Source: Streptomyces sp.
GTDB lineage: Bacteria; Actinomycetota; Actinomycetes; Streptomycetales; Streptomycetaceae
DNA: 64,000 bases
Reading direction: 5' to 3'
NCBI RefSeq assembly: GCF_036566765.1
Contig: NZ_DATCVQ010000709.1
Location: forward strand, 7,200-71,199
Part shown: positions 14,611-34,272 of the stretch, one piece after another
Layout of the letters: the number at the start of each line of letters is the position of its first letter
How positions within the stretch are numbered: position 1 is the stretch's first letter
Notes under the pieces: generated by a model
What the model was told of the DNA's origin: nothing
Database searches by the model: none
What the model saw: only the letters and a program-made list of their open reading frames with translations
Translations under genes and position numbers: made by a program

Positions 14611-14636
14611 CCCCGGGCGCCGCCTACCCTTGAGGT

Positions 14637-14957: not shown

Positions 14958-14999
14958 CCGGCCGAGCGGCGGAGCCGGTCATACCGCTACAGTCCGCGC

Positions 15000-15419: not shown

Positions 15420-15474
15420 CGCGGGGCCGCCCGCCGGGCCCATGGGCCCTCGGGCCCATGGGTCTCACGACACG

Positions 15475-15942: not shown

Positions 15943-16063
15943 GGAGGCCCCCTGGACGGATCGTCGGGCGTGGTGTAGATCGGTCGGCCCCAGTCATTCA
16001 CACCACCCGCCCCGCCGCCAAGGGCCCAGGGGTGGTGTCAGTCGGACCGGTCATCATGGGTCC

Positions 16064-16537: not shown

Positions 16538-16559
16538 GGCCGAGCCCCCGGACACGACG

Positions 16560-16592
16560 AACGGCCCGCCGGTCAGGTGCCGGCGGGCCGTT
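16560..16592. terminator. Hairpin terminator: ancestral terminator between the GNAT gene and sodN, now ~5.5 kb from sodN
   Basis: AACGGCCCGCCGG-tcaggtg-CCGGCGGGCCGTT, about 20 nt from the displaced sodN 3' remnant. Confidence 0.7.
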
Positions 16593-16611
16593 CGCGAGGA
16601 GGTGAGGAAGG

Positions 16612-16630
16612 TCAGGCCTTCTTCGTCTCC
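16612..16630 (-). repeat. att site: displaced original sodN 3' end (GGAGACGAAGAAGGCCTGA, E-T-K-K-A-stop)
   Basis: Matches 22138-22156 at 18 of 19 nt; followed by the ancestral terminator. Confidence 0.88.
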
Positions 16631-16790
16631 TAGTAATGGGGCGGGTCGGTGACCTGTGGGGATCTTCCCTGCGGGTCGCTGGCCTGGCCTTTTACCGATG
16701 GTTGGAGATGGGGTGCGTCGGTCCTGATCGGATGCCCTGCGGACTGTGCGCGGACTGACCAGCCAAACAGCACCAGGCAGCAATGCTGGG

Positions 16791-16994
16791 TCAGCGCCTC
16801 GCGGCCATCAACGTCATCGTGATGTTGCAGGCAAGAGCCAGAGTCGTCCCGAACGCTGCGGCCGCCCGAAAGCCAGTCGCCGGGTGAGTGGCCTCGTCTC
16901 GACGTGCCAGAAGTGCAGCAGCAGCCGCGACGAGGCCGGCAAGCAGCACGGCCACAGCGCAACCCAGGGCAACGGTAATGGCATGGTCAGACAC
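16791..16994 (-). CDS. Small two-TM membrane protein (island cargo)
   Basis: GTG with AGGAG RBS; VSDHAITVALGCAVAVLLAGLVAAAAALLARRD...; divergent from the HTH-NTPase gene. Confidence 0.55.
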   Translation of the reverse strand: MSDHAITVALGCAVAVLLAGLVAAAAALLARRDEATHPATGFRAAAAFGTTLALACNITMTLMAARR

Positions 16995-17113
16995 GATCGT
17001 CTCCTGTCGATGGGGCAATCTGTGACGCCGAGTCTCAGGAAGCGGTCGTTCGCCGTTGTTCGTGGCGGTAGAACTGGTCGAAGACGAACGGGGCCGAGCA
17101 TCGAAGGGTAGGA

Positions 17114-19660
17114 GTGGCCTTGGAAGAGGGTGCCGTGTCCGAAGTGGCTCTTGAGGAGCTTCGCACCCTCTTGGAGTGCGGGCTGGTAGAGCAAGGTGTG
17201 ACGAAGACGGCCCTGGCACGACGTGCCGGGCTGGGACGCACGGCGGTGAGCGAAGCGTTCAATAGAGCCGCTTCGGTTCCATCCGCGAGAGTTGTCGGGG
17301 AACTGGGCCGGGCGCTCCGACTTGATGTGCCGGCACTTTTGGAACTTCGAGCTGCAGCTGCTGGAATTCGCCGTGCGGCCTTAGCGCGAGATGCCGTTAC
17401 ACCGTCACCTGGCATCGGCCTTCCTATTGCGCACTTTGACCCACACGACCTGGAAGTTCATCCCGCCATTGACGTGGCTTTCGATGGGGATTCTGGGGCC
17501 GGAGCGCAGCGCCGCCGACTACCTCAGTATGTGCGTCGTCAGCATGATCGAGAACTGGACCAAGTTGTCGAGGATGCGATCGAAGGCCATAGCGGTATGA
17601 CTGTTCTCGTCGGGCCGTCCTCGACGGGAAAGACACGCGCTTGTTGGGAGGCGATTCAGCCTTTGGCCTCCTTGGGGTGGCATCTCTGGCACCCTCTTGG
17701 ACCAACGCGAGCCGAGGCCGTGCTGAGCGATCTACAGCATGTAGGGCCACACACCGTGGTGTGGCTCAACGAAGCTCAACATTACTTTGACTTAAGCCGA
17801 GATATTGCGGAGCAGGTTGCTGCTTCCTTTCGCGCTCTCCTCGCCGACCGACAGACTCAACCTGTGCTGGTGCTGGGAACGTTGTGGAACGAATACGCTA
17901 CTACTTATACGGCTCTTCCCTCGCCAATCAGCAAGGATCTTTACCCGCAAGTTAGGGAGTTGCTTGCAGGTCGATTACTTATGGTCCCCGAGCGTTTTGA
18001 CGCGCCGGCCCTCCGAGAGGCCCGGATATTGGCAATTGAGGGTGATCGTCAGCTCTCCCATGCGCTGAAGTATTCAAAGGAAGGCCTTCTCGCTCAGTAT
18101 CTCGCGGGCGCCCCTGCCTTGCTTGAGCGGTATCGGATGGCTAGTCCCCCTGTGCGGGCGTTGATCCAATGCGTCATGGACGCGCGACGCTTTGGTGTCG
18201 GGAGCAATGTGCCCGTAGATTTTATTTCCCATGCCGTCGAGGATTACCTGACGGATGGCGAATATGCGGCACTCAGTGGGGATTGGTTAGCTGAATCATT
18301 TCGCGAAGCCGGGAGGTCGGTCCACGGGAACTTGGCGCCTCTCACTACAATCCGTCACCGTAAATCATCTCCTCCTGATGGAGGTACCCCTGAAGCCAGG
18401 GTTAGGTTGGCTGACTCGCTGGAGCAATTTGGGCGGGTTGACCGGAGTCCGTATTGCCCACCTCAATCTTTTTGGTCGGCGGCTTGCGAGCTACTGGAAT
18501 CTGCTGAGGTGCTTGCGAAGCTTGCTGAAGCTGCCATTGATCGGCACAGGCTCTATTGGGCCCGCCGCTTAACCGAGCGGGTTGTGGAGCGGCGGGTTGA
18601 TGCCTCCGTGTTGACTGAGTTGGCACACGCCTGGGTTGAGAGCGACCCAGGCGAAGCTGAACGTCTATTTCTGAAATCTACTGAACTGGGTGACGCTGGT
18701 GCTATGGGTAGCCTAGGTTACCGCTGCGAGGAGCGGGGGGAATGGGAAAGGGCGAAAGAGTGGTTCCGTAGGGGTGCAGAGTCTGGTGACGGATTTTCCG
18801 CTTGCGAATTGGGTAGAATTTATTCAGAATTGGGTGACCTGGAATCATCTGAACGGTTCTACCGTAGAGCGATAGAGCTGGGCGAAACTGAATCTCTCGG
18901 GGGGCTGGCTCGCGTGCTAGTCGAAAAGGGGGGAGATATAGATGAGGCTTTGACTCTGCTCCAGCGATCGATCTGCACGATGGTGCGCCAGACTGCGCGG
19001 GTTTCGATGGTGAGTCTGGAAGATGATGCGGGTATCCAGCGGTCCGGTGTTACCCCTTGGTCGTCAAGAGGGGAATCTGCGGGCTCGGCTCGACGGATCG
19101 ATGAGGTGGGCGATGTCGGAGACTGCGCGAAGTTTTTGGAGGCCGTTACCGCTGCCGCGAATGACGGTGATGCATACGGGATGCGATGCCTCTATTATTT
19201 GTTGAGGTCGACAGATGAAGTAGCGGCTGATGAATTTCTTGCATCCGCTGCGCGGGGCGGAAATTCTTTTGCTGTGGTTGAGCTGGCTAGAGAGCTGAAG
19301 AGTCGTGGTGATTTGACTCGGGCCGAGTCTCTCTATCGGCAATCTATTGGTTCGGGTGATAATAAATCTTTGGTCGCCCTTGCTGGCTTGATGGAGGAGG
19401 CTAAAAACTTCGAAGAAGCCGAATCGCTTTATTGGCAGGCGATCGACTCGGGGGAAATTTATGCCGCGCATCGGCTTAGTCGGCTGAAAGAAGAGCGTGG
19501 GGATCGGGACGGGGCTGAAGAAGTCGCTCTCCTGGCTGCGGATGCGGGACACGGCGCTGCCGCTCGAGCTTTGTCTGAGGTGAGGGTGAGGCGTGGAGAG
19601 GATGGGGGGTTGTGGCTTTATGGCCTGAATCCTGACGGCACCCCGTCATCCAATATTTGA
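17114..19660 (+). CDS. XRE-HTH + STAND-like P-loop NTPase + Sel1/TPR repeat protein (848 aa)
   Basis: KTALARRAGLGRTAVSEAF HTH; VLVGPSSTGKT Walker A; VVWLNE Walker B-like; repeated G(D/N)xxA..L...L...G..A...Y..A Sel1 units; at least 5 TTA codons; lower GC. Confidence 0.82.
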   Translation: MALEEGAVSEVALEELRTLLECGLVEQGVTKTALARRAGLGRTAVSEAFNRAASVPSARVVGELGRALRLDVPALLELRAAAAGIRRAALARDAVTPSPGIGLPIAHFDPHDLEVHPAIDVAFDGDSGAGAQRRRLPQYVRRQHDRELDQVVEDAIEGHSGMTVLVGPSSTGKTRACWEAIQPLASLGWHLWHPLGPTRAEAVLSDLQHVGPHTVVWLNEAQHYFDLSRDIAEQVAASFRALLADRQTQPVLVLGTLWNEYATTYTALPSPISKDLYPQVRELLAGRLLMVPERFDAPALREARILAIEGDRQLSHALKYSKEGLLAQYLAGAPALLERYRMASPPVRALIQCVMDARRFGVGSNVPVDFISHAVEDYLTDGEYAALSGDWLAESFREAGRSVHGNLAPLTTIRHRKSSPPDGGTPEARVRLADSLEQFGRVDRSPYCPPQSFWSAACELLESAEVLAKLAEAAIDRHRLYWARRLTERVVERRVDASVLTELAHAWVESDPGEAERLFLKSTELGDAGAMGSLGYRCEERGEWERAKEWFRRGAESGDGFSACELGRIYSELGDLESSERFYRRAIELGETESLGGLARVLVEKGGDIDEALTLLQRSICTMVRQTARVSMVSLEDDAGIQRSGVTPWSSRGESAGSARRIDEVGDVGDCAKFLEAVTAAANDGDAYGMRCLYYLLRSTDEVAADEFLASAARGGNSFAVVELARELKSRGDLTRAESLYRQSIGSGDNKSLVALAGLMEEAKNFEEAESLYWQAIDSGEIYAAHRLSRLKEERGDRDGAEEVALLAADAGHGAAARALSEVRVRRGEDGGLWLYGLNPDGTPSSNI

Positions 19661-19914
19661 TAGCTATCAAGAATCAGGTAATACGCCTTTGCTGGGGTGT
19701 GGATCGGGTTGGAGGGGATGTCTGTTCGGATCGAATGGGTGAGGCGTCGAGGTAGAGCTCCCGGACCGCGGTTTCGGTGATGGACTCGCGCGGCTCTCTC
19801 TTATCGACGGGGAGGGTCCGCCGGGATTCTGATTGCTGACGATGGGGCGCACGGTCTTGATCGCGTGTGCTTCGGACTGCTGCGCGGTGCTCCGCCGCTG
19901 GAGTGACGAGGGGC

Positions 19915-20535
19915 CTACTGTCGGAGCGAATTGTTGGTCCAGAAGGAGCGGGCCTTCTTCAGAAGCTTCTCGGCGGCGTCGCCGTACGATGCCGCACTGC
20001 TCAGAGCGGCGAAGGCTTTGTTGTAGAGGTCGAGTTCGCTCTGTTCCGTGATGTCCACGGAGGAGGAGACGAGTTCGACGTGGGCCCGGTCGCTGTCGCC
20101 GTAGATGTTGAACGCGTGGACGGGGAACAGGTCCACCCGTGCGGTGGAGGGAAGGATCCCGAGGGTGAGGGAGGCCAGGCCGAGCTCTCGCAGGAGGCGC
20201 TCGATCTGTTGTCGCATGACCTCGGGCCCGCCGATGTTCGTGTAGAGAGCCTGCTCTCCGAGGACGACGTCGTAGTGGTGCTCGCCGTCGTAGAGCACTT
20301 GCTGTCGCTGCATGCGCTTGGCGACGCCCGCCGGCACGTCGTTCGGGATGCCGAGGAAGTCGACGACCTGGCCGAGGATCACGGTGGCGTATGCCTCGGT
20401 CTGGAGCGTGCCCCAGACCATCGTGGGCACGTACGCCTTGCCTTCGCGCGTGCTCTGGTACCAGCGCACCACGTCGTCCTGAGTCGCTTCCGTACCGGTG
20501 GACAGACGATCCGTCCAGGGAACTGAACTGGTCAC
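19915..20535 (-). CDS. Stand-alone DUF5753-domain protein (no HTH)
   Basis: VWGTLQTEAYA, RMQRQQVL, VVLGEQALYTNIGGPEVMRQQIERL, ELDLYNKAFAAL match the DUF5753 pattern. Confidence 0.8.
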   Translation of the reverse strand: MTSSVPWTDRLSTGTEATQDDVVRWYQSTREGKAYVPTMVWGTLQTEAYATVILGQVVDFLGIPNDVPAGVAKRMQRQQVLYDGEHHYDVVLGEQALYTNIGGPEVMRQQIERLLRELGLASLTLGILPSTARVDLFPVHAFNIYGDSDRAHVELVSSSVDITEQSELDLYNKAFAALSSAASYGDAAEKLLKKARSFWTNNSLRQ

Positions 20536-20637
20536 CGCATCCCCTCCTGCGTGGTGCCGCCGGGGCGGCTTCGATGGGCGTTGCCGCTCCGGCCGAGAAT
20601 GGCTCCGAGTGTCCGATCTTGTAAGAGCGGGAATCGG

Positions 20638-20991
20638 TCAGGCCATGCGCTTCATCTCGATGGCGAGGGCTCCGAGGGCTTCCTTCTCGGGGCCGTAGAT
20701 GGTGCGGATGTTGGCGAGCTGCTGGTCGCGGGTGGCGGTCGGGTTGACGTTGGACGGGCCCTCGCTGTCGAGGAGGGCCTCGAAGTCGGGGTACTCGGTG
20801 ACTCGGAGGACTTCGACATCGCAGGTCTCGTCCGTGCCCTTGATGCGGAAGCGGATGGTGTCGCCGGCGGCGAGGTCCGCGAGGTGCGGGTACTTGACCC
20901 GCACCTCGATGGTCTTGGTGCCTGCGGCGACGAGCTCGAAGTACTGGCGGTAGAGGTTGAGCTCGCGGACGCGGGCGGTGCGGCCGGTCAT
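20638..20991 (-). CDS. ASCH domain protein
   Basis: YFELVAAGTKTIEVRV (GxKxxExR motif), GDTIRF; ATGA overlap with the upstream gene. Confidence 0.85.
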   Translation of the reverse strand: MTGRTARVRELNLYRQYFELVAAGTKTIEVRVKYPHLADLAAGDTIRFRIKGTDETCDVEVLRVTEYPDFEALLDSEGPSNVNPTATRDQQLANIRTIYGPEKEALGALAIEMKRMA

Positions 20992-21590
20992 CGGGAAGGA
21001 ACGCTCCTGGGGGACGGTGCGGTGATCAGGCGGCCGATCTCGGCAGCCGAGTACGAGCGGAAGAAGTGGCGGGGGTCGGAGAGCAGGGTCTCGGCCATGG
21101 CAAGCAGCTGGTCGGCGTACTTAGTGACGGTGCCGGGCCACTGCCGGGTGTCGAGCATCCAGGGGGCGGCTCCCTCGGGCAAGGGGGCACGGCCTTCTCG
21201 TATGAGGGATTTCGACAGCTTGGCGCCGGTGTCGGTGACGACCTGGGGGCAGAACAGGCGGGCCGGCAGCTGGGCGCGGGTGAGGCCCACGGCCTGGAGG
21301 GCCTCGTCGACGAGGTGGGAGCCGAAGACCCAGTCGCCGCCCTTGACCATGACGTGCAGGGTGCCCTGGGGGCTGGCCAGGGCGAGTTCCTTGACCAGGT
21401 TGCGGTAGAGGGTGGCCAGGTCCAGGTAGCCGCCGGCGGTGGGCGTGATGGTGGCCTCGTAGGGGCCGTGGTGGAGGCAGACGGCGGAGACCACCGCCGA
21501 CTCGGGCCCGGTGAGGCGGACCCGGGTGCGTTCGGCGTGCTTCTCCGCCCAGCCGCAGTCGGGGTGCGGGCAGGGGACTCGGACGTCGAC
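20988..21590 (-). pseudogene. 5'-truncated class I aminoacyl-tRNA synthetase-like (LysRS1-like) gene
   Basis: RVPCPHPDCG...CLHHG zinc knuckle, KGGDW, TGAKLSKS (KMSKS-like); no HIGH region or start codon; upstream sequence is antisense integrase. Confidence 0.65.
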
Positions 21591-22130
21591 TTCAAGGCCG
21601 GCGCCATCCGCGTCGAGCGGCAGCGGCTCCAGTTTGGGAAGATCGGCCCGCCGAAGACCGCCAAGTCCCGGCGTACGGTTCCGGTCGGCGATGTCGTCAC
21701 CGACGCGCTCCTCGCGCATCTTGCCGCACGTCCGTCCAGGGAGTGGCTGTTCACGATGGAGGAGGGCGAGCCGCTCAACTACCGGCGGTGGAAGACCGAA
21801 TGGAACGGGGCTCGCAAGGCGCTCCAGGCGGCCGAGAACGGGGCCGCCGAGCGGGAAGGCCGCAAGCCCGTCGAGCTGCCGCACATGGTCACCCACGACC
21901 TGCGGCACTTCTACGCCTCCGCGCTCATCGCCGGCGGAGCGAGCGTCAAGCAGGTTCAGCTGGTCCTCGGGCACGCGTCCGCCGTCATCACGCTGCGGAT
22001 CTATGCGCACTTGTGGCCCGGGGAAGAAGACCGCACCCGGGCCGTCATGGACGCCGTGCTCGGCGGCCTGCGGACCGGGTGCGGACAGCTAAACGGCCTG
22101 ACCCGCGACAGTGCAGGTCAGGCCGCCTAG
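21582..22130 (+). pseudogene. 5'-truncated tyrosine integrase (C-terminal catalytic part only)
   Basis: DVDF....IRVERQ, PKT, HDLRHFYAS, LGHAS..ITLRIYAH; lacks the first catalytic Arg box and DNA-binding domains. Confidence 0.88.
22094..22125. terminator. Element-supplied hairpin just downstream of sodN (possible replacement terminator)
   Basis: CGGCCTGACC-N12-GGTCAGGCCG, 12 nt past the sodN stop. Confidence 0.4.
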
Positions 22131-22137
22131 AGGGAGA

Positions 22138-22533
22138 TCAAGCCTTCTTCGTCTCCCAGAAGATGCGGTCGAGCTCGGCGATGAGTTCCAGCGCCTTCTC
22201 GCCCGTCTTCGGGTCGTTCGACGCCTTGGCGGCCGAGAGGGCCTTCAGGGTGTCGTTGACCAGCTGGTGGAGCTGGGGGAACTTCTCGAAGTGCGGGGGC
22301 TTGAAGTAGTCGCTCCACAGCACCGAGACGTGGTGCTTGGCGAGCTCGGCGCGCTGCTCCTTGATGATCAGGGCACGGGTGCGGAAGTCCGCGTCCTCGT
22401 TGGCCTGGTACTTCTCCTGCACGGCCTTGACCGACTCCGCCTCGATGCGGGCCTGGGCCGGGTCGTACACGCCACAGGGCAGGTCGCAGTGGGCGCTGAC
22501 CTTCACCTTGGGGGCAAACAGGCGGGAAAGCAT
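22138..22533 (-). CDS. sodN: Nickel superoxide dismutase precursor
   Basis: 14-aa leader followed by the HCDLPCGVYDPA nickel hook. Confidence 0.97.
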   Translation of the reverse strand: MLSRLFAPKVKVSAHCDLPCGVYDPAQARIEAESVKAVQEKYQANEDADFRTRALIIKEQRAELAKHHVSVLWSDYFKPPHFEKFPQLHQLVNDTLKALSAAKASNDPKTGEKALELIAELDRIFWETKKA

Positions 22534-22675
22534 GGAGCTGTCCTTCCTCGTGATCGTCTTCTCAAGTGGGAGATTACTCGGTGAGAAGGTTGTTTTCGCG
22601 AGGGGGCCCTAGTGCTTAGGACAAAAGTCCAGGGTCACCATGGGACTCGTGGACGATCGGACCGGGAGGTGCCGG

Positions 22676-23107
22676 ATGACGGATTCGGGGCGGGAATCGT
22701 TGGTGCCGTTCGGGATCGCCGAGGTGACGGGGTTGTCGATGGTGCCCACGCTGCTCCACGGCGACCAGCTGCTGGTGCACTACGGGGGGCCGCTGCGGCC
22801 CGGTGACGTGGCCGTGCTGCGTCATCCGCTGCAGCAGGATCTGCTCATCGTCAAACGGCTGATCGAGCGACAGGACGCCGGCTGGTGGGTGCTCGGCGAC
22901 AATCCGGCCGCCGAGGGGGACAGCCGGGTGTTCGGCGCCGTGCCGGTGGAGCTCGTGCTCGGGCGTGTACGGGCCCGGTACCGGCCGGTCACGCCCGGGC
23001 GTCAGCGGTCGGCGGGCGTGGTGCTCTCCTGGCTGTTCTCGGCCGTCCGGCCGGTGTTCTCGGACCGCTCGGCTTCCAGGGCCTCCTGGCGCTTGCGGGC
23101 CCGGTAG
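22676..23107 (+). CDS. sodX: NiSOD maturation peptidase (S26-like)
   Basis: VTGLSMVPTL (Ser), IVKRL (Lys), GDN...DSRVFG; divergent from sodN. Confidence 0.9.
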   Translation: MTDSGRESLVPFGIAEVTGLSMVPTLLHGDQLLVHYGGPLRPGDVAVLRHPLQQDLLIVKRLIERQDAGWWVLGDNPAAEGDSRVFGAVPVELVLGRVRARYRPVTPGRQRSAGVVLSWLFSAVRPVFSDRSASRASWRLRAR

Positions 23108-23640
23108 GCGGCCACGTTGGCGCGCGTCGCGCAGCGGTCGGAGCAGTAGCGGCGCGAGCGGTTCGTCGAGGTGTCGAGGTACGCGTTGCGGCACGGCGAG
23201 GCCTGGCAGAGGCCGAGCCGGTCGGCGCCGAACTCCGTCAGGTGGAAGGCGAGCCCCATCGCGGCGATGGCCGCGTAGCCCGCAGTCGCGTTCGAAGGGT
23301 GGTCCGCGAGATGCATGTGCCACCGCGGCCGGCCCTCCTCGTCGAGGTAGTCGTGGCCGGAGATCTGCGGGCTCACCGGGAACTCCAGGAGCAGTGAGTT
23401 CAGCAGGTCCACGGCCGTCGTCTGGTCGCCCTCGTCCGCGGCGGTGAAGACCGCGCGCAGCCGGCCGCGGACCGAGCGGAAGCGGGTGACGTCCGCGTCG
23501 GTCGCCCGGCGGGCCATCTGGGACGCCTTGCCGAAGAGTTCGCGGACCGCCTCGACCGTGGTCAGGGAGTCCTTGTTACGGGCTGGCTCCTCGGTGTTGA
23601 CCAGACGCACGGCGTAGTCCGAGTAATAGGCCAGTTCCAC
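23002..23640 (-). CDS. CGNR zinc finger (ABATE) domain protein
   Basis: RLGLCQASPCRNAYLDTSTNRSRRYCSDRCATRANVAAYRAR. Confidence 0.9.
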   Translation of the reverse strand: MELAYYSDYAVRLVNTEEPARNKDSLTTVEAVRELFGKASQMARRATDADVTRFRSVRGRLRAVFTAADEGDQTTAVDLLNSLLLEFPVSPQISGHDYLDEEGRPRWHMHLADHPSNATAGYAAIAAMGLAFHLTEFGADRLGLCQASPCRNAYLDTSTNRSRRYCSDRCATRANVAAYRARKRQEALEAERSENTGRTAENSQESTTPADR

Positions 23641-23743
23641 TTGTAGTCCTTACTGCGACGGTCTAGGGTCGGTGGAGCGAGGGGTAAGAGACGTTTGCCC
23701 TTCGAGGGTATTACGAATTGTCGAGGTTCGAGGAGCGGAAGTC

Positions 23744-24508
23744 ATGACGGATGCAACCGTGGCCGGAACCGACTGGCAGGCCTGGCAGGAGAGCTGGGAC
23801 CGCCAGCAGGAGTGGTACATGCCGGACCGCGAGGAGCGGTTCCGGGTGATGCTGGACATGGTCGAGGCCGTGGTGGGGCCGGAGCCCCGGGTCCTCGACC
23901 TCGCGTGCGGTACGGGAAGTATCACGAACCGGCTCCTGCGGAGGTTCCCGGGCGCGACCAGCGTCGGCGTCGACCTCGACCCCGCGCTGCTCGCCATCGC
24001 CCGCGGCTCCTTCGCCGGCGACGAGAGGGTCGCCTTCGTGACCGCGGACCTCAAGGACCCGGCCTGGACCGAGGCGCTGCCGCACGACTCGTACGACGCC
24101 GTGCTCACCGCCACCGCCCTGCACTGGCTGCACAGCGGACCGCTGACCGCGCTGTACGGGCAGCTCGCCGGGCTCGTCCGGGCGGGCGGCGTCTTCATGA
24201 ACGCCGACCACATGATCGACGAGACCACCCCGCGCATCAACGCCGCCGAGCGCGCCCAGCGGCACGCCCGCATGGACCAGGAGAAGGCCGCCGGCGTCCT
24301 CGACTGGGCCGACTGGTGGGCCCTCGCCGCCAAGGACCCGGTCCTCGCCGAGCCCACCGCCCGCCGCTTCGAGATCTACGGCGAGCACGCCGACGGCGAC
24401 ACGCCCTCCGCCCGCTGGCACGCCGAAACCCTTCGCACCGCCGGCTTCGCCGAATCCCGCGTCGTCTGGTCCTCGCCTTCGGACGCGCTGGTGCTGGCCG
24501 TCAAGTAG
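23744..24508 (+). CDS. Class I SAM-dependent methyltransferase
   Basis: VLDLACGTG, GVDLD, YDAVLTATALH. Confidence 0.9.
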   Translation: MTDATVAGTDWQAWQESWDRQQEWYMPDREERFRVMLDMVEAVVGPEPRVLDLACGTGSITNRLLRRFPGATSVGVDLDPALLAIARGSFAGDERVAFVTADLKDPAWTEALPHDSYDAVLTATALHWLHSGPLTALYGQLAGLVRAGGVFMNADHMIDETTPRINAAERAQRHARMDQEKAAGVLDWADWWALAAKDPVLAEPTARRFEIYGEHADGDTPSARWHAETLRTAGFAESRVVWSSPSDALVLAVK

Positions 24509-24517
24509 CCGCGGACG

Positions 24518-24556
24518 CGGAAGGGGCGGTACGGGTCGCCCGTACCGCCCCTTCCG
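24518..24556. terminator. Bidirectional hairpin terminator
   Basis: GCGGAAGGGGCGGTACGGG-tcg-CCCGTACCGCCCCTTCCGC between convergent genes. Confidence 0.75.
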
Positions 24557-24566
24557 CTGTGCGTCG

Positions 24567-25367
24567 CTACAGCACCTTCGACAGGAACGCCTTCGTCCGG
24601 TCGTGCTGCGGGTTGCCCAGGACATCGCGCGGGTGGCCGGACTCGACCACGACGCCGCCGTCCATGAACACGAGGTTGTCGCCCACCTCGCGGGCGAAGC
24701 CCATCTCGTGGGTGACGACGATCATCGTCATGCCGGACTCGGCGAGGTCGCGCATGACGTCCAGGACGTCGCCGACCAGCTCCGGGTCGAGAGCCGACGT
24801 CGGCTCGTCGAAGAGCATCAGCTTCGGCTCCATCGCCAGGGCACGGGCGATGGCGACGCGCTGCTGCTGGCCGCCGGAGAGCTCGCCGGGACGCTGGGCC
24901 GCGTGGTCGGCGAGGCCGACCAGGGCGAGCAGCAGCGCCACCCGCTCCTCGCGCTCCTTCGGGTCCGCCCTGCGCAGCCGCATCGGCACGCCCACGTTCT
25001 CCGCGGCGGAGAGGATCGGTATCAGTCCGAAGGACTGGAAGATGAAGCCGATGCGGTCCCGGCGCAGCTCCAGGAGCCCGTCCTCGCCGAGCTCCGAGAG
25101 GTCCGTCCCGCCGACCGTGATCCGGCCGCCGTCCGGCGTGTCCAGGCCGCCGACCAGGTTGAGCAGCGTGGTCTTGCCGGAGCCGGAGCGGCCCTTGAGG
25201 GCGACCAGCTCGCCGCGCGGTATCTCGAAGGAGACCCCGCGCAGGGCGTGCACGGCCGCCGCGCCCGTACCGTACGAGCGGCGCAGGCCCTCGACCCGGA
25301 CCATCGGCCCGTCGGCCCGGTCCGCCACCGCCGTCGCGCCGGACGGTGCGCCGGTGCTCTCGCTCAT
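24567..25367 (-). CDS. ABC transporter ATP-binding protein, chimeric (LolD/MacB-type N-terminus + polar amino acid-type C-terminus)
   Basis: GRSGSGKT; [14 protein letters not shown] (LolD-like) before [16 protein letters not shown]; [21 protein letters not shown]...[12 protein letters not shown] (GlnQ-like) after it. Confidence 0.85.
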
Positions 25368-25460
25368 GTCGTGTCCCCCCTTGATCCCCTTGCCCGCCAG
25401 TATGTGCGTTCGATGCCGTACGAGGCCAGGGATCGGGCCGGACTGGCGAGTGGACGGAAC

Positions 25461-25506
25461 GGCCGGTGGGCCGCCTCCCGAGTGCGGGGGGCGGCCCACC
25501 GGCCGT
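25461..25506. terminator. Hairpin terminator downstream of the DUF3710 gene
   Basis: ACGGCCGGTGGGCCGCC...GGCGGCCCACCGGCCGT. Confidence 0.65.
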
Positions 25507-25544
25507 ACAGGGCGCGAGGTCGGCGGACCTCGGTGATCCCGGGG

Positions 25545-26306
25545 TCAGCGGACCTCGGTGATCTCCGGTCCGCGCTGGAGCTGGCCCATGCCGCCGGAGA
25601 ACCGCGAGGTCTCCTGCTCCTCCTGCTGGACGCCCTCGGGCACCATCTGCGCGTCGTCGGGCAGCTTCAGGACGATCGGGTCGCGCGGGGCCATCGGCCC
25701 GTCGCCGCGCAGCACGACCGTGTCGCGGACGATCTGCTCCAGCAGGCCCGCGGCCTCGGGCTGCACCGCGCCCTGCCCGGAGATCACGCCGCGCAGGAAC
25801 CAGCGGGGCCCGTCGACGCCGACGAAGCGCACCAGCTGCACGCCGCTGTTGCCGTCCGGCAGCTGGACCGGGACCTGGGCCCGCAGCTCCCAGCCCAGGG
25901 GGCCCTCGACCTCGTCGATGACACCGCCCTGCTGGGTGATGCCGGAGGCGATCTCCTCGCGGACCTCGCCCCAGATGCCTTCCTTCTTGGGCGCGGCGAA
26001 CGCCTGCAGTTGCACGGCGCTGTCACGCAGTACGACGGTGGCCGCGACGATCGCGTCGCCCGCCACCTCCACCCGCAGCTCCATGCCCTCGACTCCGGGC
26101 ACGAAGATGCCGCCGAGGTCCACGCGGCCCTCCTCGGGCCGGGTGACCTCGGAAATGTCCCAGGGACCGTCGGGCCGGGGCGCCGGCGGAAGGTTCACCC
26201 GGCGCGGCTTGTCAGCCGCGTCGTCAGTGTCGACCTCGTCGACGACCTGCTCGGCCTCGCCCGCTGCGTCCTCAGCGGCACCGCTCTTCTTGCGACGTCC
26301 GAACAC
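25545..26306 (-). CDS. DUF3710 domain protein
   Basis: FGRRKK N-terminus, GPWD, VDLGG, GVDGPRWFLRG; directly downstream of dut. Confidence 0.85.
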   Translation of the reverse strand: MFGRRKKSGAAEDAAGEAEQVVDEVDTDDAADKPRRVNLPPAPRPDGPWDISEVTRPEEGRVDLGGIFVPGVEGMELRVEVAGDAIVAATVVLRDSAVQLQAFAAPKKEGIWGEVREEIASGITQQGGVIDEVEGPLGWELRAQVPVQLPDGNSGVQLVRFVGVDGPRWFLRGVISGQGAVQPEAAGLLEQIVRDTVVLRGDGPMAPRDPIVLKLPDDAQMVPEGVQQEEQETSRFSGGMGQLQRGPEITEVR

Positions 26307-26307
26307 G

Positions 26308-26820
26308 TCACTGTCCTTCCCGGTCGGATACGACCGAAGCGTATCGATTCCCACCCGATGTGCCGTCCACGGCGGCATGACCGCCGGTGGAACCGAAGCC
26401 CCCCTCGGCCCGCGCCGAACCGGGAAGCTCCGCCACCTCGTGGAAGCGCACCTTCTCGACCTGCTGGACGACCAGTTGGGCAATCCGGTCGAACCTTTCG
26501 AATCGCACGCTCTCGCGCGGATCCAGATTGACCACGATCACCTTGATCTCCCCACGGTACCCGGCATCCACCGTCCCCGGGGCATTCACAAGGGCCAGAC
26601 CGCAGCGGGCGGCCAGACCGGAGCGGGGGTGCACGAAGGCCGCGTAGCCGTCGGGCAGCGCGATGGAGACGCCGGTGGGCAGCACGGTCCGCTCGCCGGG
26701 GGCCAGCTCGGCGGCCTCGGTGGTGACCAGGTCGACGCCGGCGTCGCCCGGGTGCCCGTAGGCCGGGATCGGGACCTCGGGGTCCACGCGGCGGATGAGT
26801 ACGTCCACAGGGTTGCGCAT
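26308..26820 (-). CDS. dut: dUTP diphosphatase
   Basis: GDAGVDL, PRSGLA, GTVDAGYRGE, RIAQLV, RAEGGFGSTG. Confidence 0.95.
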   Translation of the reverse strand: MRNPVDVLIRRVDPEVPIPAYGHPGDAGVDLVTTEAAELAPGERTVLPTGVSIALPDGYAAFVHPRSGLAARCGLALVNAPGTVDAGYRGEIKVIVVNLDPRESVRFERFDRIAQLVVQQVEKVRFHEVAELPGSARAEGGFGSTGGHAAVDGTSGGNRYASVVSDREGQ

Positions 26821-27404
26821 CAGGGGTTCACCTCGAAGGCGCGGGCGCGCCGGACCTGGTCGGGGTCGGACATGGCGGCCTGGATCTCCTCCGGGCGGCC
26901 GTTGTCGATGAAGTGCTCCACCTTGACCTCTATGAACAGGGCGTAGCCACGGACGGCGACGGGGCCGTCGGGCCCGCCGATCCGGCCGGTGGCGGTGGAG
27001 TAGATCTTGCGGCCGCGGACGGCGGTGACCTCGGCCTGCAGGTGCAGCACGGTGCCGACCGGCACGGGGCGCACGAAGTCGGTCTCCAGGCGGCCGGTGA
27101 CGGCGATGACCCGGAGCAGCCAGTTCAGCGAGCCGAGCGTCTCGTCGAGCGCGGTGGCCAGGACGCCGCCGTGGGCGAGGCCCGGGGCTCCCTGGTGGTC
27201 CGCGGTCACGGTGAACTCGGCGGTGACGGTGACGCCCTCTCCGGCCCGTGCCTCCAGGTGCAGCCCGTGGGGCTGGCCGCCGCCGCAGCCGAAGCACTGC
27301 GCGTAGTGCGAGCCGAGCAGCTCGCCGGGCGCGGGCGCCTCGGGGTGGCGTACCGGCGGTACGGCGTCGGCCGGCGGGGTGAGTGCGGCAGATGTTCCAG
27401 TCAC
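26820..27404 (-). CDS. PaaI family thioesterase
   Basis: HQGAPGLAHGGVLATALDETLG hotdog motif. Confidence 0.88.
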   Translation of the reverse strand: MTGTSAALTPPADAVPPVRHPEAPAPGELLGSHYAQCFGCGGGQPHGLHLEARAGEGVTVTAEFTVTADHQGAPGLAHGGVLATALDETLGSLNWLLRVIAVTGRLETDFVRPVPVGTVLHLQAEVTAVRGRKIYSTATGRIGGPDGPVAVRGYALFIEVKVEHFIDNGRPEEIQAAMSDPDQVRRARAFEVNP

Positions 27405-27462
27405 AGCCGCAGACCTTACCCGCGCGGGTACCCGCAGGTCGCGCCGTGCCAAGCTTGTTCGC

Positions 27463-27927
27463 ATGCAGCCTTCCGCCCCGTCCTACGACGAACGTCTGAC
27501 CGCTCCCGGCTCCTGGTGGGTGATCGCCGCCCTGCTGGGCCTGTCCGGCGGTCTGGTGATGTTCCCGCTCGGCAATGTGCCGATGCTCGCCGGCGTGATC
27601 GTCGCGGGCGCGCTCGCGGCGATCGGCGTCTCGTCGTACGGCTCCGCGCGCATCCGCGTGGTGGCCGGCTCGCTGGTCGCGGGCGAGGCCCGGATCCCGG
27701 TGGCGGCGCTCGGGGCGCCGGAGGTGCTGGACGCCGAGGAGGCGCGCGCCTGGCGCTCGTACAAGGCCGATCCGCGCGCCTTCATGGTGATGCGCGGCTA
27801 CGTCCCGCAGGCCGTGCGGGTCGAGGTGACGGACCCGGCGGACCCGACGCCGTACGTGTACCTGTCCTCGCGCGACCCGAAGGCGCTGGCGGCGGCCCTG
27901 GAGGCGGTACGGGCCGAGGCGCAGTAG
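27463..27927 (+). CDS. DUF3093 domain membrane protein
   Basis: YDERL..P..WW, DPRAF...RGYVP.AVRV...DPADPTPY.YLSSR.P. Confidence 0.82.
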   Translation: MQPSAPSYDERLTAPGSWWVIAALLGLSGGLVMFPLGNVPMLAGVIVAGALAAIGVSSYGSARIRVVAGSLVAGEARIPVAALGAPEVLDAEEARAWRSYKADPRAFMVMRGYVPQAVRVEVTDPADPTPYVYLSSRDPKALAAALEAVRAEAQ

Positions 27928-27943
27928 CCCACGGGCGGCGGCC

Positions 27944-28909
27944 CTAGTAGCCGAGCTCCTTGGGGTTCTCCGGCTGCTCCAGCGGCGGCAGCGCGGGCAG
28001 TGCGTTCCAGGGGATCTGGCGGCGGCGGAGGTCCGCGCGAACGTGGTCGGCGAGCTTCCTGGTGTCGCGGCGGTTCATCACCGCGCCCACGGCGGCGCCG
28101 ATCATGAACGGCATCAGGTTGGGCAGGTTGCGCACCATGCGCTTCATGATCTGCTGGCGCAGCTCGCGCTTGAGCTGGCCGCCGAGCGCCGCGTTGACGG
28201 TCGTCGGCTTGGCGGGGTCGATGCCCCGCTCCTCCGTCCAGGAGGTCAGGTACGCGGTGGAGCGCTGGGCGAGCGTGCCGGGCGGCCGCAGTCCGTAGAC
28301 CTCGTGCAGCTCGGCGACGAGCTTCAGCTCGATCGCGGCGACGCCGGTGATCTCCGCGGCCAGTTCGGCCGGGAGGGCGGGGGGCACGGGCAGCATGGCG
28401 GCGGCGCCGATGCCCGCGCCGACGGTGGAGCTCGCGTTGGCAGCGCCCTGGATGAGTTTGTCGGCGATCTGCTCGGGTCCGAGGCCCGGGAACTGTCTGC
28501 GCAGCGTCGCCAGGTCCCGTACGGGGACCCGCGGCGCGATCTCGATGATCCGGTCGGCGAGGTAGCCGATGCCGGCCCGGGCGCTTGCGCCCGTCTTCTG
28601 CACGCCCCGCTTGACCGCGTCGTAGCGGACGCCGCGTTTGACCGCGTCGTAGCGGACGCCGCGCCGAAGGGCGTCAAGACGCCGGGGCCAGCGCTCCTGC
28701 TCGACGGGCACGGGGCCCGGCGACGCTGCTTCGAGCGAGGCCGGGAGGCCTCGCTCGTCGTCACGTGCACCGGTGGACGGCAGGAGAGCGGAGTGCTCGG
28801 CTTGAGGGGCCTCCATGGCGCCCTCGGCCGTGCCTGAGCCGCCCTGATGCGTGTCCGGCGTCCTGGGGAGCCGGAAACGCCGCTTCCGAGACGGGGTATC
28901 GCCTGCCAC
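27944..28909 (-). CDS. Conserved hypothetical protein (start uncertain)
   Basis: Coding-like codon bias; Streptomyces-type C-terminal domain (APRVPVRDLATLRRQFPGLGPE...). Confidence 0.65.
   Translation of the reverse strand: MAGDTPSRKRRFRLPRTPDTHQGGSGTAEGAMEAPQAEHSALLPSTGARDDERGLPASLEAASPGPVPVEQERWPRRLDALRRGVRYDAVKRGVRYDAVKRGVQKTGASARAGIGYLADRIIEIAPRVPVRDLATLRRQFPGLGPEQIADKLIQGAANASSTVGAGIGAAAMLPVPPALPAELAAEITGVAAIELKLVAELHEVYGLRPPGTLAQRSTAYLTSWTEERGIDPAKPTTVNAALGGQLKRELRQQIMKRMVRNLPNLMPFMIGAAVGAVMNRRDTRKLADHVRADLRRRQIPWNALPALPPLEQPENPKELGY
28602..28663 (-). repeat. 27-bp in-frame tandem duplication (GVRYDAVKR x2)
   Basis: Translation reads RRGVRYDAVKRGVRYDAVKRGV. Confidence 0.8.
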
Positions 28910-28922
28910 GGCCGACCGGACC

Positions 28923-29219
28923 TCAGTCGCAGTCGCGGCAGATCGGCTGACCGTTCTTCTCGCGCGCCAGCTGGCTGCGGTGGTGCACGAGGAAGCAGCT
29001 CATACAGGTGAATTCGTCGGCCTGCTTGGGCAGCACGCGGACGGCCAACTCCTCGTTCGAGAGGTCGGCGCCGGGCAGCTCCAGGCCCTCGGCGGCCTCG
29101 AACTCGTCGACGTCGACGGTCGAGGTCGACTTGTCGTTCCGGCGGGCCTTCAGTTCTTCAAGGCTGTCCGAGTCGACGTCGTCGTCGGTCTTGCGTGGGG
29201 TGTCGTAATCCGTTGCCAT
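28923..29219 (-). CDS. DUF4193 domain protein
   Basis: MATDYDTPR...LPGADLS.EEL.VRVLPKQADEFTCMSCFLVHHRSQL...CRDC. Confidence 0.9.
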   Translation of the reverse strand: MATDYDTPRKTDDDVDSDSLEELKARRNDKSTSTVDVDEFEAAEGLELPGADLSNEELAVRVLPKQADEFTCMSCFLVHHRSQLAREKNGQPICRDCD

Positions 29220-29624
29220 GTCGCTCTCCCCCTCTGGGTGGTTGCGGTGTCTCCAGCGCACGTAACGCGTGAGAGGCCGGACTTGTGCCCGACCTGAGGC
29301 GGAGATTTTGCCTCACATCAAGGTCTGTTACTCAATCGACACCCAACGGGACCCCTCACGAGTGATCGGGTTTGGGTGGCGAACGGGACCGTACACGGTC
29401 CACCTGCCGTCCTTCACGGGCGCCACCCCGTGTACTTCCCGTGATTCAGGCCCCCGGAAACCCGGACTTTTCCTGGTTTTCCGGCGGATTCGACGATCAC
29501 GGAGAGTAGATGGCCGGAGACCCGCCCCTGTGATCGATCACACACGGTCTCTTCGGGAACAGGTCCCGAAAATTCAGCGTAAAGCGAACACCAGGGCGAA
29601 CTTCCTGCCGGCTCGAGCTGCGTG

Positions 29625-30860
29625 TCAGATCGGCAGAGTGACACGCATCACGAGGCCACCGCCCTCGCGGGGCTCCGCGATGATACGGCCCCCGTGGGCC
29701 CGGGCGACGGATCGGACGATCGACAGGCCGAGTCCGACCCCCTTGTCGCTGCCCGTGCGCTCCTGACGGAGCCTGCGGAACGGCTCGAAGAGGTTGTCGA
29801 TCTCGTACGCGGGGACCACGGGCCCCGTGTTCGTGACCACGAGGACCGCCTGTCCGTGCTGGGTCTCGGTGGTGACCTCCGCCCAGCCATTCTCGGCAAT
29901 GTTGTACCGCACCGCGTTCTGGATCAGGTTCAACGCGATCCGTTCGAGCAGCACGCCGTTGCCCTGGACGAGCGCCGGGGCCTGTTCGCCGCGGAACTCC
30001 ACGCCCTTCGCGTCGGCCTCCGCCCGCACCTGGTCGATGGCCCGGGAGGCCACCTCGGCCAGGTCGACGGGCTTGCGCTCGACGATCTGGTTGTCACTGC
30101 GGGCGAGCAGCAGCAGGCCTTCGACCAACTGCTCGCTGCGCTCGTTGGTGGCGAGGAGCGTCTTCCCGAGCTGCTGGAGCTCGACCGGCGCCCCGGGGTC
30201 GGAGAGGTGCACCTCCAGGAGGGTGCGGTTGATCGCCAGCGGGGTGCGCAGCTCGTGCGAGGCGTTCGCCACGAAGCGCTGCTGGGCGGTGAAGGCCCGC
30301 TCCAGCCGCTCCAGCATCTCGTCGAAGGTGTCCGCGAGCTCCTTGAGCTCGTCGTCCGGGCCGTCCAGCTCGATGCGCCGGGCCAGGTCGGATCCGGCCA
30401 CCTGGCGGGCGGTCCGGGTGATCCGGCCGAGCGGCGACAGGACCCGGCCGGCCATCGCGTAGCCGAAGGCGAAGGCGATGATGCTGAGGCCCAGCAGGGC
30501 GAAGAGCGAGCGGCGCAGCACGTCGTCCAGGGCCAGGTCCGTCTGGTGCCGCAGACAGATCGCCATGGCGTCGTTGAGCTCTTCGGTCGTGGGGAGGGCG
30601 GGGAGCCGGCACCAGGCCGCGGTGGTCTCCACCCTGCCGCTGACGACCTTGAAGGGCAGCTGGGCGGTGCTGTCGCTCACCGCCTGGGCGGTGAACAGGT
30701 AGATGATCGCCAGCAGCAGGATGCCGGCGATCAGGAACATGCCGCCGTACAGCAGCGTGAGCCTTATCCGGATCGTCGGACGCAGCAGCGGGCGCACCGG
30801 GTCCCGGGGGTCCCAGGTGGGTTTCGGAGGCGCCTGGGGCGGCGCGGGGGTCGAGGCCAT
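29625..30860 (-). CDS. cutS: Sensor histidine kinase CutS
   Basis: Two TM helices, HAMP, FVANASHELRTPL, GVGLGLSIV; two Cys in the extracytoplasmic loop; paired with cutR. Confidence 0.85.
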   Translation of the reverse strand: MASTPAPPQAPPKPTWDPRDPVRPLLRPTIRIRLTLLYGGMFLIAGILLLAIIYLFTAQAVSDSTAQLPFKVVSGRVETTAAWCRLPALPTTEELNDAMAICLRHQTDLALDDVLRRSLFALLGLSIIAFAFGYAMAGRVLSPLGRITRTARQVAGSDLARRIELDGPDDELKELADTFDEMLERLERAFTAQQRFVANASHELRTPLAINRTLLEVHLSDPGAPVELQQLGKTLLATNERSEQLVEGLLLLARSDNQIVERKPVDLAEVASRAIDQVRAEADAKGVEFRGEQAPALVQGNGVLLERIALNLIQNAVRYNIAENGWAEVTTETQHGQAVLVVTNTGPVVPAYEIDNLFEPFRRLRQERTGSDKGVGLGLSIVRSVARAHGGRIIAEPREGGGLVMRVTLPI

Positions 30861-30863
30861 CGG

Positions 30864-31517
30864 TCAGATCCGGTAGCCGGAGCCGGGCACCGTGACGATG
30901 ACGGGGGGCTCGCCCAGCTTGCGGCGCAGAGTCATGACGGTGACGCGGACGACGTTGGTGAACGGGTCCGTGTTCTCGTCCCAGGCCTTCTCCAGGAGCT
31001 GCTCGGCGGAGACCACCGCGCCCTCGCTGCGCATCAGGACCTCCAGGACCGCGAACTCCTTGGGGGCGAGCTGGACCTCCTTGCCGTCGCGGAAGACCTC
31101 GCGGCGGTTCGGGTCGAGCTTGATGCCGGCGCGCTCCAGGACGGGCGGCAGCGGCACGGTGGTGCGGCGGCCGAGCGCCCGGACGCGGGCGGTGAGCTCG
31201 CTGAAGGCGAAGGGCTTGGGGAGGTAGTCGTCGGCGCCGAGCTCCAGGCCCTCCACGCGGTCGCTGACGTCGCCGGACGCGGTCAGCATCAGGACCCGGG
31301 TGGCCATGCCCAGCTCGACGATCTTGCGGCAGACGTCGTCGCCGTGGACCAGCGGCAGGTCCCGGTCGAGGACGACCACGTCGTAGTCGTTGACCCCGAT
31401 GCGCTCCAGCGCCGCGGCGCCGTCGTACACGACGTCGACGGCCATGGCCTCCCGGCGCAGTCCGGTGGCCACCGCATCGGCGAGCAGCTGCTCGTCCTCG
31501 ACGACGAGTACGCGCAC
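30864..31517 (-). CDS. cutR: OmpR-family response regulator CutR
   Basis: VRVLVVEDE, VLDRDLP, GADDYLPKPF, RRKLGEPPVIVTVPGSGYRI. Confidence 0.88.
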   Translation of the reverse strand: MRVLVVEDEQLLADAVATGLRREAMAVDVVYDGAAALERIGVNDYDVVVLDRDLPLVHGDDVCRKIVELGMATRVLMLTASGDVSDRVEGLELGADDYLPKPFAFSELTARVRALGRRTTVPLPPVLERAGIKLDPNRREVFRDGKEVQLAPKEFAVLEVLMRSEGAVVSAEQLLEKAWDENTDPFTNVVRVTVMTLRRKLGEPPVIVTVPGSGYRI

Positions 31518-31871
31518 GTCGTATTTCCTTCCTCCGAGCCCTGCGCACCCCTCGACGGGGACCGGGCGGTCCTGAGCACTGACTGTGCGTATCCATCCTG
31601 CCCCCAACGTGCGTAAACCGGCTGTAAGACGGAGTGCACGCGGGGTGTGCGCGGCGGCGGGCGGGCCGCCGGGCGCCGAGAATTCACCTGATTCCCGGGC
31701 CAGTTGAGGTTTCTCTGAGGAAAGGGCTGGGGAGGACGTCTGCACACCCCGTGATCACGCCCTGTATGTGGCGCGCCACCTACCGCTCTGTCCCCCAGAG
31801 GTAGCAGTGCGTGATCCACCCGGACCCTCGGCACACCCCCGTGCCACCGACCCATGACGAGGGGGCGCACG

Positions 31872-32045
31872 ATGGACGCTTTCACCGCAGGGCTGCTGCA
31901 GCGCATCAGGACCACGCAGTCCGACCTCACACGGGCTCGCGAGACGGGCGACGACTTCCTGGCGGAGGTCGAGCAGGCTGAGCTCGAAGACCTGCGTCGC
32001 CTGGCCGCCGAACACGGTGTGGAGGTCGGCGCCGCCAGCGCCTGA
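31872..32045 (+). CDS. Small conserved hypothetical protein (57 aa)
   Basis: MDAFTAGLLQRIR...; GAGGGGG RBS; followed by a hairpin. Confidence 0.65.
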   Translation: MDAFTAGLLQRIRTTQSDLTRARETGDDFLAEVEQAELEDLRRLAAEHGVEVGAASA

Positions 32046-32063
32046 CCTCGACCGGCAGCATGC

Positions 32064-32098
32064 CGAGGGCCCCGGAGTCGATCGACTCCGGGGCCCTC
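32064..32098. terminator. Hairpin terminator
   Basis: GAGGGCCCCGGAGTCG-at-CGACTCCGGGGCCCTC. Confidence 0.7.
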
Positions 32099-32129
32099 GG
32101 TCTGTCCTGGGGGCGGTCGCACGCCCTTC

Positions 32130-32966
32130 TCAGTCGTGCCAGGCCCCGTACTCCTCAAGGAGCGCCTGGAGCGGCTCGAAGACGCCCGGGGAGGCCGCAA
32201 GGGTCAGCTCGCCCGACGGCGCCCGGCCCGGCCGGCCGCCGGTCAGCGCGCCCGCCTCGCGGGCGATCAGGTCGCCCGCGGCCAGGTCCCAGGGGCTGAG
32301 CCCGCGCTCGTAGTAGCCGTCCAGGCGGCCCGCGGCGACGTCGCTGAGGTCGATGGCGGCGGAGCCGCTGCGGCGGATGTCGCGCAGCCGCGGGATCAGC
32401 CGCTGGGCCACGTCCGCCTGGTGGGCGCGCACGGTCTGGACGTAGTTGAAGCCGGTCGAGACGAGCGCCTGGTCGAGCGGCGGGGCCGGGCGGGCGGCCA
32501 GCCGCCGCCACTCGCCCTGCCCGCCGGCCCGGAGGTATGCGCCGCCGCCGCGCACGGCCCGGTACGTCTCCGAGCGCATCGGGGCCTCCACGACGCCGAC
32601 GACCGTCTCGCCGTCCCGTTCGGCGGCGATGGAGACGGCCCAGGTGGGCAGCCCGTACAGGTAGTTGACCGTGCCGTCGAGCGGGTCGACGACCCAGCGG
32701 ACGCCGCTGGTGCCGGCGCTGGACGCGCCCTCCTCGCCGAGGAAGCCGTCGTCGGGGCGGTGCTCGGCCAGGAAGCCGGTGATCAGCTTCTCGGCGGCGA
32801 TGTCCATCTCGGTGACCACGTCGATCGGGCTCGACTTGGTCCTGGCCACGGACAGGTCCTGGGGCCGCCCGTCGCGCAGCAGGACGCCCGCCCGGCGTCC
32901 GGCCTCCAGGGCGAGGTCCAGCAGCTCTGCGAGGAGCGGGTCGGTCGGGACGGTGGTGTCGGTCAT
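32130..32966 (-). CDS. suhB: Inositol monophosphatase family protein
   Basis: GEEG, WVVDPLDGTVNY, RRSGSAAIDL, WDLAAG. Confidence 0.9.
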   Translation of the reverse strand: MTDTTVPTDPLLAELLDLALEAGRRAGVLLRDGRPQDLSVARTKSSPIDVVTEMDIAAEKLITGFLAEHRPDDGFLGEEGASSAGTSGVRWVVDPLDGTVNYLYGLPTWAVSIAAERDGETVVGVVEAPMRSETYRAVRGGGAYLRAGGQGEWRRLAARPAPPLDQALVSTGFNYVQTVRAHQADVAQRLIPRLRDIRRSGSAAIDLSDVAAGRLDGYYERGLSPWDLAAGDLIAREAGALTGGRPGRAPSGELTLAASPGVFEPLQALLEEYGAWHD

Positions 32967-32975
32967 GGCGTCTCC

Positions 32976-34103
32976 CTACGCGTACGGGCTGTCGGCGCCG
33001 GCCGCCGCGGGCCGGTCGGCCCGGGCCGGGCAGCAGCCGATGGGGCAGAGGTCGTGCGAGGCGCCGAGGGTGCCCAGGGCGCACCGCTCGACGACGGCGC
33101 CGCCCTCGGTGGCCGCGCGCTCCAGGACGAGGCCGCGGACGGCCGCGGCGAACCGGGGGTCGTCGCCGACCGTCGCCGAGCGGCGCACCGGCAGGCCGAG
33201 TTCGGCGGCCTTGGCGGCAGCCTCGGTGTCGAGGTCGTACAGGACCTCCATGTGGTCCGAGACGAAGCCGATCGGCACCATGACGGCGGCCGGGACGCCG
33301 GCGCCGTGCAGCTCCTCCAGGTGGTCACAGATGTCCGGTTCCAGCCACGGGATGTGCGGGGCGCCGCTGCGGGACTGGTAGACGAGCCGCCAGGGGTACT
33401 CGACCCCGGTGGCCTCGCGGACCGCGTCGACGATCACCTGGGCCACGTCCAGGTGCTCCTTCACGTAGGCGCCGCCCGCGCCGTGCTCCTCGACCGGGCC
33501 GGAGGAGTCGGCGGCCGAGTCCGGGATGGAGTGGGTGGTGAAGGCGAGGTGGGCCCCGGCCCGGACGGACTCGTCGAGCTCGGCCAGGGAGGCGAGGACG
33601 CCGTCGACCATGGGCTCGACGAAGCCCGGGTGGTTGAAGTAGTGCCGAAGCTTGTCGACCCGGGGCAGCGGCAGCCCCTCCGCCTCCAGCGCCGAGAGCG
33701 CGTCGGCGAGGTTCTCGCGGTACTGGCGGCAGCCCGAGTAGGAGGCGTACGCGCTGGTGGTGAGGACGGCGATGTGCCGCCGGCCGTCCGTGACCATCTC
33801 CCGCAGGGCGTCGGCGAGATACGGCGCCCAGTTCCGGTTGCCCCAGTAGACCGGCAGGTCGAGCCCGGCCTGCGCGAAGTCCTCGCGCAGCGCGGCGAGC
33901 AGCGCGCGGTTCTGGTCGTTGATGGGGCTGACGCCGCCGAAGAGGAAGTAGTGCTGCCCCACTTCCTTGAGCCGCTCCGTGGGGATGCCTCGGCCGCGGG
34001 TCACGTTCTCCAGGAACGGGACCACGTCGTCCGGTCCTTCCGGACCGCCGAAGGAGAGCAGCAGCAGGGCGTCGTACGGGGCTGGATCGCGCTGATCGGA
34101 CAT
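32976..34103 (-). CDS. hemH: Ferrochelatase (coproporphyrin ferrochelatase)
   Basis: SFGGPEG, GGVSPI, FTTHSIP, YQSRSG...[21 protein letters not shown]. Confidence 0.93.
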
Positions 34104-34272
34104 GGCACCGATCCTGCCACCCGGCGCCGACAGCGCATGGTCCGGCCCGTCTGCGTGTGGGACGGGCGTCCGGAAAAGTTCGTGACCCATTCGCTTCGAA
34201 GCCGTAGGCTTTAGCTATTAATTACACGTGTTGACCAACTGACACACGCTGAGCCGACGTCCGGAGATCCAC

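Follow-up and report, generated by a model that had tools for sequence, protein, structure and literature searches.

A hybrid ABC transporter ATPase gene in a Streptomyces draft genome is very probably an assembly artefact

Introduction

Homologous recombination between inverted paralogues, such as rrn operons, IS copies or tuf genes, produces chromosomal inversions, and a gene that joins the front of one paralogue to the back of the other can be read as a trace of such an event.

Repeats and conserved regions are also a documented source of chimeric contigs in short-read draft and metagenome assemblies, and contigs of this kind go unseen by marker-based estimates of contamination (bioRxiv 10.64898/2026.10.15.759294; metaMIC, PMC9661791).

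The DNA considered here, referred to as the window, is a stretch of 64,000 nucleotides from contig C709 (positions 7200-71199). This contig is the longest of the 769 that make up an 8.65-Mb Streptomyces draft genome. Marker-based quality measures place the assembly at 98.7% completeness and 2.59% contamination. The window contains an ORF for a hybrid ABC transporter ATPase, which shares the Walker A motif, the Q-loop and the signature motif with nucleotide-binding domains (NBDs) of the MacB/LolD/DevA type, and the Walker B motif, the D-loop and the H-loop with those of the GlnQ/HisP type.

The locus resembles inversions between inverted paralogues in that its two parent genes are mutually inverted and the junction falls within their longest identity. 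It differs from them in that no reciprocal product is present, the identity is only 40 bp long, no related strain has the arrangement, and the same repeat is evidently misassembled on two further contigs. The likeness to the chimeric contigs described in the two papers cited above is closer: the junction lies likewise in an exact repeat of unrelated loci, a second contig (C3) joins foreign and native DNA, the estimated contamination is low (2.59%), and intact copies of the parents occur in other assemblies. Unlike those examples, the C709 junction is intragenomic, joining two loci of one genome and not two species, and the repeat is only 40 nt long and falls within a protein-coding motif, so that the ORF stays open and is annotated as a normal protein.

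Results

The hybrid gene is a two-part chimera in the deposited sequence

The hybrid ORF occupies positions 24567-25367 on the minus strand and encodes 266 amino acids from an ATG at 25367; NCBI also holds a 245-residue version that starts at MVRV. The reading frame is unbroken and the full set of ABC motifs is present. A preliminary description of the region, made from the letters alone, had proposed that a LolD/MacB-type N-terminal part switches to the polar amino-acid type near positions 24835-24885, and had advised comparing the halves separately. Compared in this way, each half matched a different intact ATPase, and the proposed switch was borne out to the base. Nucleotides 1-524 of the hybrid gene (window 25367 down to 24844) show no mismatch to the intact gene for P0003, a MacB/LolD/DevA-like protein of 243 residues encoded on the metagenome contig L097. 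Nucleotides 485-801 (window 24883 down to 24567) show none to the intact gene for P0123, a GlnQ/EhuA/TcyN-like protein of 253 residues encoded on the metagenome contig L100.

The two zero-mismatch segments overlap by 40 nt at window 24844-24883 (minus strand). This overlap, AGCTCTCCGGCGGCCAGCAGCAGCGCGTCGCCATCGCCCG on the gene strand, contains the junction and is the longest exact identity between the two parent genes. It covers codons 162-175 and falls on the signature motif, which in the hybrid lies at window 24834-24881. The portion found only in the MacB/LolD/DevA-like parent (24884-25367, minus strand) comprises the Walker A motif, the Q-loop and the helical subdomain and agrees with the intact gene on L097 at every base, and the portion found only in the polar amino-acid (GlnQ-type) parent (24567-24843, minus strand) comprises the Walker B motif, the D-loop, the H-loop and the C-terminal tail and agrees in the same way with the intact gene on L100. 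At the base level the hybrid is a clean two-part chimera in the deposited sequence, and the 40-nt stretch is its junction or, in terms of the assembly graph, a node.

At the protein level, a search of protein clusters returned P0003, which is the same as the hybrid through the signature motif and then continues with a MacB/LolD-type C-terminus. For the second parent the expected intact protein was built and then found: P0123 consists exactly of the N-terminal half on contig C3 of the same assembly followed by the C-terminal half in the window.

Scores against NCBIfam models were consistent with this composition. The hybrid was divided about equally between polar amino-acid models (TcyN, GlnQ, EhuA) and models of the MacB/LolD/FtsE type, with all scores far under the cut-offs (243 bits against TcyN, cut-off 406; 192 bits against LolD, cut-off 308). 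P0003 scored best with the DevA, MacB and LolD models (213 bits against LolD, cut-off 308) and P0123 with GlnQ, EhuA and TcyN (318 bits against GlnQ, cut-off 379). Since the scores of both parents fall below the curated equivalog cut-offs, neither is a named orthologue, and the type names express resemblance only.

Gene order breaks at the hybrid gene and both parental loci are intact in the same population

The sequence to the left of the junction (14566-24883) carries genes for a methyltransferase (23672-24508, plus strand), a CGNR protein, sodX and sodN, and is 99.7% identical to three metagenome contigs (L100-L102); the match to L100 extends over window 14566-24947. On those contigs the same sequence runs on into permease, binding-protein and malic enzyme genes, and not into the DUF3710 and dut genes that follow in the window. 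The sequence to the right (24844-35368), which carries genes for a DUF3710 protein (25545-26483, minus strand), dut and a thioesterase, is 99.84% identical to L097 (alignment over window 24835-35368), where an intact ATPase gene stands at its end, with kdpD after it. As the preliminary description had stated, the hybrid gene has neither a permease nor a binding protein beside it. The MacB/LolD-like parent is likewise an orphan, lacking an adjoining permease in relatives too.

That description had also placed a rearrangement breakpoint at this gene, on the gene order of S. coelicolor, and comparison with a complete relative (G011) upheld the break. Window 4801-24800 is collinear with the minus strand of the G011 chromosome from 2.731 to 2.714 Mb, and the counterpart of window 24900-44899 is the plus strand from 1.973 to 1.994 Mb, so the flanks correspond to regions 740 kb apart on opposite strands. 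The parent genes themselves lie in G011 at 1,973,092-1,973,817 (minus) and 2,713,409-2,714,161 (plus), 740 kb apart and inverted relative to one another. The synteny break within contig C709 is therefore real as a property of the deposited contig.

Metagenome contigs that come from the same Streptomyces population and are 99.1-99.85% identical to the window carry intact copies of both parents. P0123 is intact on five of them (L100-L104), in the order malic enzyme, substrate-binding protein (SBP), permease, ATPase, methyltransferase, CGNR protein, sodX and sodN. The intact MacB/LolD-type gene is found on three (L097-L099), two encoding P0003 and one the near-identical P0004, in the order dut, DUF3710, ATPase and a KdpD-like gene; of the three, only the P0004 contig (L099) has this last gene complete and with a Pfam annotation. 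Two of the contigs, L097 and L100, come from one metagenome sample (ERZ27250277) and are 55 and 57 kb long. The chimeric arrangement is present in none of the eight contigs of this population (L097-L104).

Three further features of these loci were recorded. After sodN, an island of 5.5 kb (window 16634-22129) is present in L100-L102, and L103 and L104, from the same population, have an empty site; an imperfect direct repeat, TCA(G/A)GCCTTCTTCGTCTCC, is found at both ends of the island. At the other parental locus, G011 has a gene for an ECF-type sigma factor between the MacB/LolD-like ATPase gene and kdpD (L011, 8561-9955). This gene is missing at the corresponding site in the population of the window (C148, L099), and its closest copy in the assembly, on C73, has 62% identity. 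Finally, the amino-acid ATPase genes of C3 and G011 (L012, 9404-10165), which belong to two species, differ at only 3 positions over a central segment of about 450 nt that is flanked by sequence of about 86-88% identity, which may reflect either unusually strong conservation at the base level or recombination between species.

All three contigs that carry the 40-base stretch switch source there

Within the assembly, the 40-mer occurs on only three contigs, C709, C3 and C148, and each of them switches source at it.

Contig C3 (locus L105, 13460-17321) carries genes for malic enzyme, the binding protein and the permease and the N-terminal half of the ATPase gene, and shares 99.7% identity with L100 as far as the 40-mer. 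The next 120 nt or so belong to a slightly divergent variant of an amino-acid ATPase gene, after which the contig switches a second time, at a conserved stretch of about 37 nt encoding the H-loop, into Rhodococcus DNA. The tail of the contig is 99.64% identical over 3324 nt to a Rhodococcus Logan contig (L114) and 97.4% identical to a Rhodococcus genome. The glutamate dehydrogenase (GDH) encoded in the tail has 100% protein identity to that of Rhodococcus percolatus and about 52% to Streptomyces orthologues, and the assembly has a GDH orthologue of its own on C688. A convergent amino-acid ATPase gene comes after the GDH gene in the Rhodococcus genome, matching the arrangement on C3. Judged by these matches, C3 is an inter-genus chimera in which Streptomyces DNA is joined to Rhodococcus DNA inside an ABC ATPase gene. 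The remainder of the Rhodococcus locus was sought in the assembly, where only the tail of C3 matches it.

Contig C148 ends inside a LolD-like gene. From the 40-mer onwards it is near-identical to the true LolD-type C-terminal half, kdpD and the downstream genes as found on L099. The first 240 nt, at the tip of the contig (locus L106, 10420-10659), match the true gene at only 84% identity, and C148 was for this reason rejected both as the natural continuation of the locus and as a reciprocal product; the best match of the tip, at 90%, is a locus of Streptomyces poriferorum.

The preliminary description had suggested looking elsewhere in the assembly for a reciprocal hybrid, next to the orphaned permeases. 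A gene combining an amino-acid-type N-terminal half with a LolD-type C-terminal half was found on no contig of the assembly.

Two other sources of confusion in the assembly were considered and set aside. No near-identical copy that would point to a collapsed repeat was found in the assembly: identity does not rise above about 82-83% in the best of the other copies, and the sequence shared is limited to the node of 40-47 nt. A second Streptomyces strain co-assembled across the whole genome was also rejected, as an all-against-all comparison of the contigs gave only about 185 kb of paralogue-like pairs; any admixture of strains must accordingly be small.

The hybrid was not found in relatives or, its own record aside, among the best-matching protein clusters

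No full-length homologue of the hybrid was found in 30 relatives, nor among the best 80 loci of a scan of GTDB species-representative genomes. Among the best 8000 candidates from 5.8 billion protein clusters, the hybrid was found only as the window's own record. An exact search of JGI metagenome contigs gave 0 matches for the chimeric junction and also 0 for its positive control, the intact amino-acid ATPase junction.

A few other proteins that combine a LolD-type N-terminus with an amino-acid-type C-terminus are on record (P0009, P0011 and P0112), each of them a singleton from a metagenome or Logan contig of 1-4 kb. A further singleton ATPase on a short contig (1-4 kb), P0122, has an internal duplication after the Walker B motif. 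The occurrence of similar hybrids as singletons on short contigs suggests that the stretch from the ABC signature to Walker B is a recurrent point of misjoining in assemblies of high-GC actinomycetes.

Discussion

The junction in C709 is exact, both parents are intact in the same population, and partners are swapped on three of the three contigs that carry the 40-base stretch. On this evidence the hybrid gene is best read as an assembly artefact, with the assembler as its probable cause, a reading to which we assign a probability of roughly 0.9; the gene is very probably not a real genomic feature, and an inversion of the chromosome is not the reading we favour.

In the proposed course of events, the starting point is a pair of ATPase genes in a single Streptomyces genome, separated by about 0.7 Mb in the complete relative, that have 40 identical bases in common over the ABC signature motif. 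One is the orphan MacB/LolD-like ATPase gene between DUF3710 and kdpD, and the other the gene for the GlnQ-like ATPase of a polar amino-acid importer, beside the methyltransferase gene and sodN. The shared bases would form a single node of the assembly graph, crossed by several genes, those of contaminating or co-assembled organisms included. The assembler would then have left this node by wrong edges, passing from the LolD-type N-terminal half to the amino-acid-type C-terminal half in C709, from the amino-acid-type N-terminal half to a foreign variant and on to Rhodococcus in C3, and from a foreign LolD-like tip to the LolD-type C-terminal half and kdpD in C148. All three contigs would be explained by the wrong resolution of a single node of 40-47 identical bases.

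Some points weigh against a misjoin. Both sides of the C709 junction are native DNA of one population, with equal identity to it, and 40 identical bases suffice for rare RecA-mediated recombination. Many modern assemblers also finish with a k larger than 40, and a misjoin at this node would therefore call for a small k, low coverage or an assembler that iterates over k.

The principal alternative is a real and very recent inversion of about 0.7 Mb in one strain, brought about through the 40-bp identity of the two inverted ATPase genes. A point against it is that, with the loci at 1.97-2.71 Mb on the 7.7-Mb chromosome of G011, such an inversion would probably lie within one arm and so reverse the orientation of genes relative to replication. 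With the parents on opposite strands 740 kb apart in G011, recombination between them would give exactly the C709 junction, inside the longest exact identity of the two genes and between two native flanks that match the population to the same degree; the geometry of the junction does not favour an inversion over a misjoin, or the reverse. The preliminary description had accordingly held the two to be equally possible, and of that assessment the misjoin is now strongly favoured and the equality does not stand, the inversion being improbable. The considerations that weigh for the misjoin are the missing reciprocal hybrid, the misjoining of C3 and C148 at the same 40 nt, and the intact genes in several independent metagenome assemblies.

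Indeed, the inversion accounts for C709 alone. The reciprocal junction is missing, and at the same node each orphaned half meets foreign DNA, so that an error of the assembler is needed there in any case, also if the inversion took place. Given that both halves of the hybrid match the intact genes without a mismatch, the inversion would have to be extremely recent, and every other assembly of the population has the canonical order. It would have destroyed both ATPase genes, with the reciprocal hybrid present in the cell and scrambled by the assembler at the very node concerned. Taken together, we consider an inversion, and with it a scrambled reciprocal product, improbable.

A natural hybrid ATPase family or a product of gene conversion, functional and maintained in the lineage, is less credible still and would come as a considerable surprise: the unbroken frame, the presence of every ABC motif and the few other hybrids on record would agree with it, but each of those hybrids is on record only once, from a short metagenome contig, and none comes from a complete genome, close relatives and the same population hold only the two intact parents, and gene conversion leaves flanking gene order unchanged, whereas the flanks here come from two loci.

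A misjoin at a conserved motif has consequences for the use of this genome. The hybrid ORF is deposited in NCBI and UniRef as an ordinary "ABC transporter ATP-binding protein", and C709 gives the impression of a 0.7-Mb rearrangement that is probably not real. Rhodococcus genes lie on C3 within a Streptomyces genome of acceptable marker-based quality. More generally, breaks in synteny or hybrid ATPases at the stretch from the ABC signature to Walker B in draft genomes should be held suspect until confirmed by reads. The biological weight of the finding is small, and its practical weight is larger: it calls for caution with this assembly and with hybrid ABC ATPases in draft genomes.
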